Assembly: GCF_013167455.1 (NCBI RefSeq)
Contig: NZ_CP038328.1
DNA length: 64,000 bases
Reading direction: 5' to 3' (one strand)
Source of the DNA: Escherichia coli O157:H7
GTDB lineage: Bacteria > Pseudomonadota > Gammaproteobacteria > Enterobacterales > Enterobacteriaceae
Shown: positions 9,001-12,000 of the stretch, one piece after another
How the letters are laid out: each line of letters starts with the position of its first letter
Position numbering within the stretch: position 1 is the stretch's first letter
Program-made: the position numbers

Positions 9001-12000
9001 TCATACAAAAAGGTGAACAGGTGAATACTTTGGTGAATAGTTTTACAAAAAGTGTTCACCCATTAACATATTGATACTAAATACATTTATTGCAGGGTGA
9101 ACAGTGGTGAACAGTTTTTCTATAACTTAATTTTTATCACCCTCATTTTTCACTGGTGCACATGACGGCAGCCAGTCCTCAGACTCATCCGTCAGTATCA
9201 CGTTTGATCGCACACCTTCTTTAGTTCTCTTTTTCATATACTCCCTGCCATATTCCGCCATTGCGCCTGGCATATCTGCACCGAAGCGCGTCAGTGTTAC
9301 GGGCTTACTGAAACCGTGCGCCCTCATATACGAGAGATAGGCGTGATAAAGATAACGGCGTGGACTGAAAGGAATAATCTCAGCATTACCGACTAACAGG
9401 CCGTCACACATTACCGACGACATGAGATAGCCGCAGAAGTCCACCAGCGAATCCCCCTCACGCTTTATCGCCAGTGCTTCTTCTGATTTCTGCTGCTCAT
9501 ATAAAAGGCGTCTGGCTTCGTCCTGATCAGCAAACCGTGTAAGCAGATGACGAATCACTACAGCAAGCTCACCTTCTATTTTTTCCGGCAGCATCGGATC
9601 GCGTTCGTTTTCCGGTACAACCTCCGAAAAATTGAATATCACACGACGACGTGAGATCCCCCCGCTGCGGTCACTGAATGACATGGCGCTGTTGTTAACC
9701 GCCAGCACAACCGCCGGAATACGCGTTGAGTATGGCGCTTTGTGTTTCGGGTCAATTGCCACCTTGTCACCGCCCGTAATGGCCTTTATCCCTGCACCAT
9801 CACCCGCGTAGCGGGTCATATCCGGCAGAATAATCAGTGAAAAGCCAACCACTAATGCGCGTTCCCTTGCATCCTCCAGTGCCTTCATGCTTGCCGATAC
9901 CGTGTTGGCCTTACCTGCCAGCATGGTACAAATCTCCGCCATAACACTTTTACCGCTTCCACCAGGACCTGTTACCTCAATGAATAACTGCCAGTCGTAC
10001 CGGTTCGCCAGCACCATAAATAACGCTGCCAGAACGCGATCTGCCTTGCGGTCATTCTCAGCCACCGAACGGCGCAACCATTTCCAGAAATTCGGCGCAT
10101 GTGTTGCCAGCGTTTCCCCCTCTGCTGGTGGGCTGAAAGGTAATTCACTGGCAATTAACAACCAGTCGTTTTTGTTATGCTCCCGAAAATTACCTGTTCT
10201 GGTATCAAATACCCCGTTACTGAATCCAATCAGGTTACGGGCTGTATTCCCCATTACAGGCAAACTTAACTTCATGGTATCGACCGCCGATTTAATGGCG
10301 TTCTGCGAATAGCTGATCTCCGCATCAATGAAAATCTGTGCCATAGCTCGCTGTAATTCTTTATCCTGTACTGGCTCCCATACAACGCCGTTGTAATGGT
10401 GAACAGTGTCAGAGTCAGCATGAATCGCCAGTTCACCGCCATAATGTGCCAGGAGAACTTCGCCGCGTTGACTTGCTCCCATCTGGTTAAGCGCTAGTGA
10501 TGAAGCGTTATCGTCTTTTACCCGCTCTTTTTTCTTTACAGGCAGTTCAACTACCTTTTTCTTTTCCGCCTGCTCTGCCCGTTCACGTTCCAGATATTCG
10601 CGCCAGTTCTCCCGTTTCTGGCTGTGCATTCCTTCAGGGTAATAATCAGCATCCCTGACACCTGCCACTGCCAGTTTCTGCCCGATGGTATTAACAAGCC
10701 CCGGACGCAATAACCCCGCCTGATAGAGACGCACGCGATAGCGTCCGTCCGGTACGATTTGCAGGTTGTCCAGTTCGGCAAGTTGTTGCTCTCCAAGCCA
10801 GACAGGTGGCACGTTATCGCCAGCCAGTCGCCCGTCCTGTTCCTGCCACTGCTTCGCATGTGCCCACGCATCACTGCCAGCGAAAATAATCACTTCCGTA
10901 TCGGCGTGTTTTTTCCCTCGAGGCTGTTTTTTTAAGTTCGGTGCGCTTTTCATTTCTTACCTCTGCTGATCATCGTCATGTGGCTACCGTATTCATTGCG
11001 GTAAATATCCCCGCACATAAATTCGGGGTGAGTTTTGCTACTGGCAGTTAAGCCAGTATTTTTTGATGCCATTGAATTAATCTCCTGAAGGAGTCGTCTT
11101 AATCCTTATTTCCCGTTTATTTTTAGCCGTTATTGTTCGCCGCGTTTTTCTTCCTCCGTCATTAACCACACCGCCACATTGCTGGAAAGTTGTTTGATAA
11201 GTCCTGCAATAACAGAAAGGTCATGGTCGTCTATTTCTTCGTGGTTGCGTTCAATCATGCGGCTGATTACTTCGACCTGTTGCGCTTGCAGTGAGGCTTC
11301 TGCCAGTGTTATTTGCTGCATTACTGCACCCCCTTAATTTCATGATATTCAGAACAACAAAGGATTCAGTCATTGACGCATATTGCATCATCACCCGATG
11401 CAGCAATCAGCCAGCTACCTGCCTTACCTGTAAGCTGCTTAATCAGGGCGAGCAATGACTCAATCTCACCCTCAGTCATTCCACCTGTGTTACCCATCAT
11501 CAGAGAACAAATAAGTTCTGCCTGCATTGCGCTTTTTGCTGCTTCATCAACAGTCATATCGGAAAAATCACACATGAATTACTCCTCATCCTGAATACAT
11601 GTAACTGCGTGGATAATTACGCCGGATAAACCGGCTTTAGCTGATTTGTTAATTACTGTGCTGATTGCAGCCTGGACGTTTTCGGCCTTCACGTTCTGTG
11701 TGATGCCGATGGTATGGCCGCGCTTGTTAACAGCACGGGAAAAGACGCGGAAGGTTTTAAGCATGAGTCACCTCCTGACGGATACGGGCGACAAAAATCA
11801 GATGTGCGTGCGGCAGCCGGGCGCGTGCTTCGCGCTCAGTGGCAGCGGTAACGGTGAATATTGCAATGCTGTCTGTCAGGCACTGCATAAAGCGCCAGAC
11901 AAAGTAAGGGCGTGCGGATACAGCCATGTGAAAGGCTCCTCTGACTTTGGGATTATACCCACCGCCCAAGAGGCCAATCTTGCTGGCGGTGGACTGTACG

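Follow-up and report, generated by a model that had tools for sequence, protein, structure and literature searches.

A 64,000-nucleotide stretch of Escherichia coli O157:H7 DNA (RefSeq assembly GCF_013167455.1, contig NZ_CP038328.1; further referred to as the window) carries an island of about 16 kb between dinD and yicC which, by its RefSeq annotation, resembles the phage-inducible chromosomal islands (PICIs). We studied a group of five small open reading frames (ORFs) at 10950–11927 leading into the replication gene of this island, and the RNA elements upstream of them. The island annotation was read from NZ_CP027459.1 (E. coli 90-3040), which is 100% identical to the window over 10800–12100; window positions equal NZ_CP027459.1 positions minus 4201515. 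Every island gene discussed is carried by the minus strand, and the order is given from right to left. All five ORFs were found at the limits given in the initial annotation: ORF1 (11757–11927, 56 aa, ATG at 11927), ORF2 (11579–11764, 61 aa), ORF3 (11366–11575, 69 aa), ORF4 (11130–11321, 63 aa) and ORF5 (10950–11072, 40 aa). ORF1 and ORF2 share 8 nt (ATGCTTAA), 3 nt separate the ORF2 stop from the ORF3 ATG, and gaps of 44 and 57 nt lie upstream of ORF4 and ORF5, respectively. The stop codon of ORF5 overlaps the ATG of the 608-aa primase gene (9127–10953) within the sequence ATGA, so that the overlap with the replication gene start reported earlier is also confirmed. Sequence reading places an AGGAG-type Shine-Dalgarno sequence 6–9 nt 5' of each of the five starts.

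Long ORFs across this region are found on the plus strand as well, and hence the presence of an ORF alone is weak evidence for a gene. RefSeq annotates four of the five (ORF1–4) in one genome, and the exact sequences of all five are already public, each on at least 1000 contigs. A cassette consisting of an Icd-like gene, ORF2, one phrog_1478 gene, a 99-aa DUF4222 gene and the primase was found in 30 IMG/VR loci, and the order is identical in a capsid-carrying Klebsiella island (L040). Ratios of nonsynonymous to synonymous substitution rates (dN/dS) were calculated by the Nei-Gojobori method; they are 0.10–0.66 for ORF2, where synonymous sites are saturated in distant pairs, and mostly 0.10–0.28 for ORF4, with 1.04 in one near-identical pair that differs by only 5 substitutions. 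For ORF3 a single comparison, with the L002 locus of E. coli 2013C-3033, gave 0.11. The exception is ORF5, with values of 0.43–1.2. These comparative sequence data settle the gene status of four of the five ORFs. No match was obtained in the Pfam scan of the five ORFs joined as one sequence.

The main functional feature of the locus, overlooked in the initial annotation, is a predicted antisense-RNA switch directly upstream of ORF1. Its first element is a candidate −10 box, TATACT (12179–12184, minus strand), recognized by sequence reading and aligning with TATAGT of phage P4; it ends 6 nt ahead of the 5' end (12172) of an isrK-like RNA and has no good −35 box. This leader RNA, similar to isrK and to P4 seqA (12096–12172, minus strand; Rfam RF01394, 52.1 bits with the gathering threshold of 50), ends in an intrinsic terminator formed by a stem at 12102–12115 and a U-run, according to a terminator scan. 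It is followed by a C4-type antisense RNA, the type to which P4 CI RNA belongs (11982–12069, minus strand), which matches Rfam RF01695 at full length with 73.8 bits (gathering threshold 45, E=1.6e-12). The minimum free energy fold of this RNA (−40 kcal/mol) is the canonical structure, and GCCA is present within its 3' end. The two recognition segments of the C4-like RNA are the loop of the second hairpin, UCCUCUAAC (RNA positions 44–52), and the single-stranded AGGCCAAU (positions 60–67).

Both segments have two sets of targets. The upstream targets lie within the isrK-like leader and are a1, AUUGGCCU, at 12141–12148, and b1, GUUAGAGG, at 12124–12131. The downstream target region (11932–11978, minus strand), defined by complementarity, is equivalent to P4 seqC and arranged as a2/b2 of phage P1. 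Here a2, again AUUGGCCU, occupies 11971–11978, 4 nt past C4, and b2, AGAGGA (11937–11942), is the Shine-Dalgarno sequence of ORF1. The segment AGGCCAAU is perfectly complementary to AUUGGCCU at both places, and the loop UCCUCUAAC pairs with both GUUAGAGG and AGAGGA. In addition, AGCCUU (11932–11937), which adjoins b2, is complementary to C4 positions 34–39. The pairing extends over 8+8 nt for the upstream sites and 8+6 nt for the downstream sites. This pattern was reached by only 9 of 5000 shuffles of the C4 segment. The 261-nt leader as a whole folds with z=−5.5, and in this fold the upstream sites pair with C4 in cis.

The same arrangement was compared in six elements, namely the window, P4, an EcCIMP1-like locus (L009), locus L012 and two tandem copies in L002. 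All six show two-by-two pairing at identical RNA positions, realized by six different, perfectly matched sets of sequences, and in all six the AUGGCU start of an ORF1-type gene follows C4 by 52–58 nt. Judged from the alignments, this six-element covariation is compensatory change of the kind that defines immunity specificity.

Several peculiarities of the RNA region in this and related loci were observed. The tandem C4 genes of L002 (6356–6443 and 6837–6924) are each followed by an Icd-like gene and have different recognition sequences, so that two immunity specificities in series may be encoded there; one of the two copies shares the segment UUCUCAC with P4. In locus L006 (GCA_002487045.1, 4560–4660) the promoter and the first isrK hairpin are kept, while the rest of isrK and the whole C4 are gone, with the junction within the a1/a2 repeat GUGAGAAC. 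C4 was apparently lost there by recombination between the a1 and a2 target repeats, and the result would be a natural immunity-less allele. In L015 (2938–4008, 3078–3620), which represents the commonest relative in IMG/VR, two divergent small genes (phrog_6522/phrog_949 and phrog_21027) are found instead of C4 and isrK, and an additional 73-aa gene (phrog_2196) stands ahead of DUF4222. The C4 gene of the island is covered by a pseudogene annotated in RefSeq as 'ash family protein' (11982–12065, minus strand), and a 343-aa ORF (11876–12907, minus strand) spans both isrK and C4. Neither has the appearance of a protein gene, and both seem to be translations of RNA genes; a parallel is provided by P4, where the old 'cI gene product' coding sequence covers the CI RNA.

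ORF1, the first translated gene after the C4 RNA, starts 55 nt past the end of C4. It matches the NCBIfam profile NF033153 (phage_ICD_like) with 51.4 bits (cutoff 25, E=8e-14) over all 48 profile positions (1–48), and both ORF1 and P4 Kil match phrog_1743; the score of P4 Kil (65 aa, extracted from the P4 genome) with NF033153 is 76.1 bits (1.6e-21). In BLASTP, residues 6–49 of ORF1 align with residues 9–50 of P1 Icd at 48% identity (E=8e-12), and ORF1 is nearer to P1 Icd than to P4 Kil. The relatives of ORF1 have in common the motif F[IV]W[RL]F ... AATE.EAR ... [VI]F.A[RK]. A tblastn search with ORF1 against the phage collection returned no match. By these profile and alignment matches, ORF1 is a member of the P1 Icd / P4 Kil family. 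Since the core of P1 Icd (residues 12–51) inhibits division and binds FtsZ (PMC11897509), ORF1 probably encodes an FtsZ-binding inhibitor of cell division.

ORF2 belongs to phrog_3672 (2.9e-24) and has homologues in Klebsiella, Citrobacter, Enterobacter and Raoultella; its position next to the Icd gene was seen directly in Klebsiella locus L040 and in the IMG/VR loci. The AlphaFold2 (AF2) model is a beta-beta-alpha-beta fold with a predicted local distance difference test score (pLDDT) of 91.6. The first 21 or so residues, MLKTF.V...AVN..G.T.GI (window 11702–11764, minus strand), are near-invariant and remain constant even among relatives from other genera with overall identity of 30–35%, which suggests a specific interaction surface. 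No match to ORF2 was found by tblastn in the phage collection, and hhalign of ORF2 with P4 epsilon gave a probability of 0.1%. A weak PADLOC match to DruA (E=0.011) was judged to be due to chance and rejected.

The initial annotation described a motif ...LIKQL....WL in two neighbours and proposed duplication. The motif is indeed present in ORF3 and ORF4, which align without gaps over 54 aa at 28% identity (BLASTP E=1e-7) and both match phrog_1478 (2e-12 and 1.3e-18, respectively). By this alignment they are true but old paralogues. The duplication stands in this sense, but not as a recent tandem copy, which is ruled out by the identity of 28% and by the absence of ORF3 from the 30 relatives; most relatives carry a single phrog_1478 gene. 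The copy kept in relatives is ORF4. ORF3 is a divergent second member of this family of small helical-hairpin proteins from temperate phages and satellites, present, among the loci examined, only in this island type and in L002; as a sole query it found no relatives in viral contigs, and it scores higher against the homologue from the lambdoid phage Fels-1 than against ORF4. The AF2 model of ORF4 is a two-helix hairpin (helices 6–29 and 32–62, pLDDT 94.2) with an acidic tail. A Foldseek search with this hairpin against the Protein Data Bank (PDB) gave nothing below E=1.6, only generic helical hairpins, and in the tblastn search of the phage collection ORF4 matched Fels-1 only. Profile searches with hidden Markov models (HMMs) of both ORF2–4 families against PDB sequences produced no significant match. 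ORF2, ORF3 and ORF4 are most likely conserved accessory proteins, small binders of host or helper proteins.

ORF5 was counted in the initial annotation among five candidate effectors, a status that its sequence does not bear out. Residues 1–36 show 72% identity with the N-terminal 36 residues of a 99-aa DUF4222 protein from L002; in relatives this protein is encoded ahead of the primase, and its C-terminus, RGKK, reappears as the last four residues of ORF5. According to the DNA alignment, about 177 nt were lost in frame from the interior of the gene, between short repeats that contain TCAG, while the Shine-Dalgarno sequence, the start, the first 36 codons and the ATGA overlap with the primase are intact. 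The Pfam domain DUF4222 (PF13973; complete length 52–53 residues) occupies residues 16–67 of the full protein, so that ORF5 retains only 21 of 52 domain positions; accordingly, no complete domain is present, and DUF4222 was not reported in the Pfam scan of the joined ORFs. Of 5426 complete E. coli genomes, 96 contain the deleted allele at identity of at least 99%, among them O157:H7, O111:H8 and O103:H2 strains. In several genomes ORF5 is left out by the annotation pipeline PGAP. ORF5 is a deletion remnant of DUF4222 and not a fifth effector; its translation is probably kept mainly as a leader delivering ribosomes to the primase start. The region 10802–10965, which covers roughly the first 150 nt of the primase gene together with the ORF5 end, is about 84% identical to the junction at which genes annotated as 'DUF4222' and 'helicase RepA family' meet in many other E. 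coli genomes. This start region looks like a common joint at which different replication modules have recombined.

Taken together, we assign a probability of about 70% to the interpretation that ORF1–5, the genes nearest to the promoter, head the replication ('early') operon in a PICI-type satellite and are positioned behind a C4-type RNA switch. An early operon leading into a primase related to P4 alpha had been anticipated in the initial annotation, and this part is supported. The switch would operate as follows. A promoter with the −10 box TATACT would drive the isrK/seqA-like leader, and a part of the transcripts would end at the isrK terminator, the rest reading through C4 into ORF1–ORF5 and the primase. 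The read-through transcripts would yield the C4-like RNA, presumably by RNase P, as known for CI and C4 RNAs (PMC5499578). This RNA would pair with the site just 3' of itself and with the ribosome-binding site of ORF1, and block ORF1 translation. In P1 immI and in P4 immunity, a block of translation silences the downstream operon. As in those systems, because translation of ORF2 would depend on that of ORF1, and RNA free of ribosomes is exposed to premature termination, the whole operon including the primase would be silent in quiescence. The block might be lifted by an excess of leader RNA carrying the decoy sites a1 and b1 (compare IsrK in Gifsy-1) or, alternatively, by transcripts running on from the alpA-ant genes upstream once a helper is induced. 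Upon derepression the division inhibitor ORF1 would be made first, and ORF5 would serve mainly to bring ribosomes to the primase start.

The closest parallel to the switch is the immI operon of phage P1 (c4 antisense RNA, icd, ant1/ant2), whose curated record gives the order a1, b1, c4, a2, b2, icd, ant. In both loci a1/b1 come first, followed by C4, by a2 at a distance of 4 nt from the RNA and by b2, which lies at the ribosome-binding site of an Icd-family gene; the stop of this first gene is overlapped by the gene that comes next. However, the gene coupled to Icd in the island encodes 61 aa and is unrelated to Ant, the operon runs into a primase whereas that of P1 ends with the antirepressor, and the leader contains an isrK-type terminator hairpin. 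The recognition sequences also differ from those of P1, implying a different immunity specificity.

In P4 the left operon has the order PLE, seqA, CI RNA, seqC, kil/eta, epsilon, orf151, cnr, alpha, and the C4 and isrK matches in P4 correspond to the CI immunity RNA and seqA, respectively (PMC4825925; PMC10111431). The island shares with P4 the succession of an isrK-like RNA, a C4-like RNA and a Kil/Icd gene, the pairing at the same RNA positions, an 8-nt overlap of kil with the next gene (epsilon over kil/eta), and an operon ending in an alpha-related primase. The primase of the island, however, has another N-terminal part; it matches phrog_864 (DNA primase, 3.8e-188), and its score with TIGR01613, the C-terminal domain of P4-family primases, is 93.9 bits, under the cutoff of 108.7. 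No homologues of P4 epsilon, eta, orf151 or cnr were found among the five ORFs (BLASTP, no match below E=0.1); the P4 proteins belong to phrog_10016, phrog_10748 and phrog_5991, and the ORFs of the island to phrog_3672 and phrog_1478. Of the core of P4-like satellites (psu, delta, sid, alpA, int, epsilon, alpha), only int, an AlpA-like helix-turn-helix (HTH) gene and the alpha-related primase are common to both.

Gifsy-1 of Salmonella provides another related arrangement (isrK, STnc1160/orf45, anrP; antQ), in which IsrK, a structural homologue of P4 seqA, is situated upstream of a processed RNA and an antirepressor, and the short IsrK RNA activates translation in trans (PMC4825925). Common to both are a terminated leader of the IsrK type, then an RNA that is processed (in the island, presumably) and a small first ORF translationally coupled to the gene behind it, and the island also holds genes of the antirepressor and antiterminator-Q families. 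In the island, in contrast, isrK is preceded by the antirepressor and followed by a cargo of small ORFs and the primase. It may be mentioned that an isrK-type RNA, an antirepressor and an antiterminator-Q are the component types of the Gifsy-1 IsrK-AnrP-AntQ growth-arrest circuit (PMC4825925), present here in other order.

The Gram-negative PICIs EcCICFT073 and EcCIMP1 (PMC6092414, PMC11773190, PMC10111431) share with the island int, alpA, an antirepressor, an 'Ash family' region, small ORFs, a primase, a single-stranded DNA-binding protein (SSB) and PerC; the gene content of EcCIMP1 in particular resembles that of the present island (PMC11773190). The EcCIMP1-like L009 has in addition a phrog_1478 gene and the C4/isrK pair, and Rfam matches to C4 and isrK in Gram-negative PICIs have already been reported (PMC10111431). 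The second phrog_1478 gene and the truncated DUF4222 distinguish the island from them. According to the annotation, the island has the features of a Gram-negative PICI: int, alpA and pri-rep are co-oriented, the length is about 16 kb, and structural and lysis genes are lacking. Its gene content makes it PICI-like, not P4-like.

The initial annotation compared the five ORFs with the P4 early operon encoding kil, eta and epsilon. The analogy holds for kil (ORF1, through NF033153 and phrog_1743) and for RNA immunity but fails for eta, epsilon, orf151 and cnr, which have no homologues here. One may still suppose that the ORFs are functional equivalents of kil, eta and epsilon, with ORF2 (or ORF3 or ORF4) derepressing a helper prophage in the manner of epsilon, which derepresses P2. 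We consider this unlikely, given that neither sequence nor profile similarity to epsilon, eta, orf151 or cnr was detected for ORF2–5, that no long eta-like in-frame ORF crosses the leader (extended in frame in the 5' direction, ORF1 meets a stop codon within C4), that a separate AntA/AntB antirepressor gene is already present on the island, and that the best fold match was a ribosomal protein, the remaining ones being generic. What the proposal of a helper-derepression factor retains is support from position, ORF2 overlapping ORF1 by 8 nt as epsilon overlaps kil/eta. The slot of ORF2 is that of P4 epsilon (the 8-nt overlap included), P1 Ant and Gifsy-1 AnrP, all of which are anti-repressors. 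It is therefore conceivable, though rather doubtful, that ORF2, always start/stop-coupled to the Icd/Kil gene, belongs to a new class of small proteins of enterobacterial satellites that act as anti-repressors or derepress the helper, with the phrog_1478 hairpins as additional binders of helper or host proteins.

Another explanation is that ORF2–ORF5 are not interference factors but accessory replication proteins, such as a loader, a Cnr-like copy-number control or origin-binding partners of the primase. ORF2–5 are always found directly upstream of the primase and co-oriented with it, P4 cnr holds the same place ahead of alpha, and the DUF4222 gene, whose stop is coupled to the primase start, likewise stands ahead of 'helicase RepA family' genes in other E. 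coli elements. However, the Fels-1 member of phrog_1478 is located in the early-left accessory region, on the opposite side of the repressor from the primase/helicase genes of the phage, which argues against a strictly replication-linked role. DUF4222 seems dispensable for maintenance, because its domain is destroyed and the allele is nevertheless present in 99 complete genomes, and no DNA-binding or ATPase signature was seen in the Pfam scan or in the HMM searches against PDB sequences. On balance this explanation, too, is improbable. Least probable of all is that some or all of the small ORFs do not encode functional proteins and constitute a long structured leader or decaying sequence before the primase. 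It agrees with the nature of ORF5 (a remnant with dN/dS near 1, skipped by PGAP in several genomes), with the lack of Pfam domains and with ORFs of similar length on the opposite strand. In contrast, ORF2–4 are under purifying selection with saturated synonymous change, and have strong Shine-Dalgarno sites, coupling, confident compact predicted folds and conservation across genera and element types.

Some observations weigh against the preferred interpretation of an early operon behind a C4-type switch. No σ70 promoter was found by the consensus scan; as a consequence, activation might be required for this promoter, or the transcripts might originate further upstream. The isrK score barely exceeds the gathering threshold. 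The b2 pairing of 6 nt, with the adjacent 6 nt to another C4 segment, is the shortest of the six elements, the other five having 7–10 nt. Most relatives of the cassette, those of the L015 type, contain neither C4 nor isrK even at E<=1, and in L006 C4 was lost by deletion. C4 is therefore ruled out as a universal component of the cassette; the switch and the cassette are separable modules, and the ORFs do not depend on the switch. Finally, ORF2–4 have no Pfam, NCBIfam or PADLOC match, fold searches with them were non-specific, and the estimate of selection for ORF3 is one comparison only.

The analysis corrects the reading of the locus: the operon would be gated by an RNA switch that the annotation hides as an 'ash family protein' pseudogene. 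A likely FtsZ inhibitor is carried by an island found in about 2% of complete E. coli genomes (O157:H7, O111 and O103 strains included). The six heteroimmune combinations of C4 and targets form a natural set, and the conserved small-protein cassette (ORF2, phrog_1478, DUF4222) ahead of satellite primases is now defined, providing candidates for interference between satellite, helper and host. All five proteins were already in databases and C4/isrK matches in PICIs were published, so that current knowledge is not overturned; what is added are the six-way covariation, the explanation of 'ash family' as translation of an RNA gene, the DUF4222 deletion and the definition of the cassette. If the anti-repressor role of ORF2 is true, the antisense RNA would be the quiescence switch of a PICI, and PICIs and P4 would share an immunity module beyond the three proteins previously stated.

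The remaining genes of the island, all on the minus strand, are as follows. Upstream of the RNA elements are the integrase (15059–16372, RefSeq annotation), a hypothetical protein of 216 aa (RefSeq annotation), the AlpA-like HTH gene (13810–14025; Pfam Phage_AlpA 1.7e-5, HTH_17 2.8e-7) and the annotated AntA/AntB antirepressor (12894–13742). Downstream of the primase the annotation contains a hypothetical protein, SSB (7944–8393), ProQ/FinO (7511–7927) and three PerC-family genes (7198–7488, 5978–6280, 5809–5976), and further along the island a YeeE-like transporter, an antiterminator-Q family gene (3232–3624) and a disrupted IS2. No structural or lysis genes are annotated between dinD and yicC in RefSeq, and no gene in this annotation is named sid, psu or delta; the latter is based on annotation, with no dedicated profile search. 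In the related island EcCIMP1, the PerC-family protein reportedly represses expression of the locus of enterocyte effacement (PMC11773190); the present island, with its three PerC-family genes, occurs in enterohaemorrhagic E. coli lineages.

A 62-aa ORF, hypothetical in RefSeq, is located on the plus strand at 12399–12587, divergent from the isrK promoter region, and has a terminator-like hairpin of its own at 12654–12674 (plus strand). It has no PHROG match; similar C-terminal sequences are encoded on the equivalent strand in L006 and L015, and the ORF may regulate the divergent promoter region. Outside the island, a JUMPstart RNA (Rfam RF01707, 55.2 bits) was detected at 25836–25874 on the plus strand, where it presumably heads a polysaccharide or lipopolysaccharide-core operon of the core genome.

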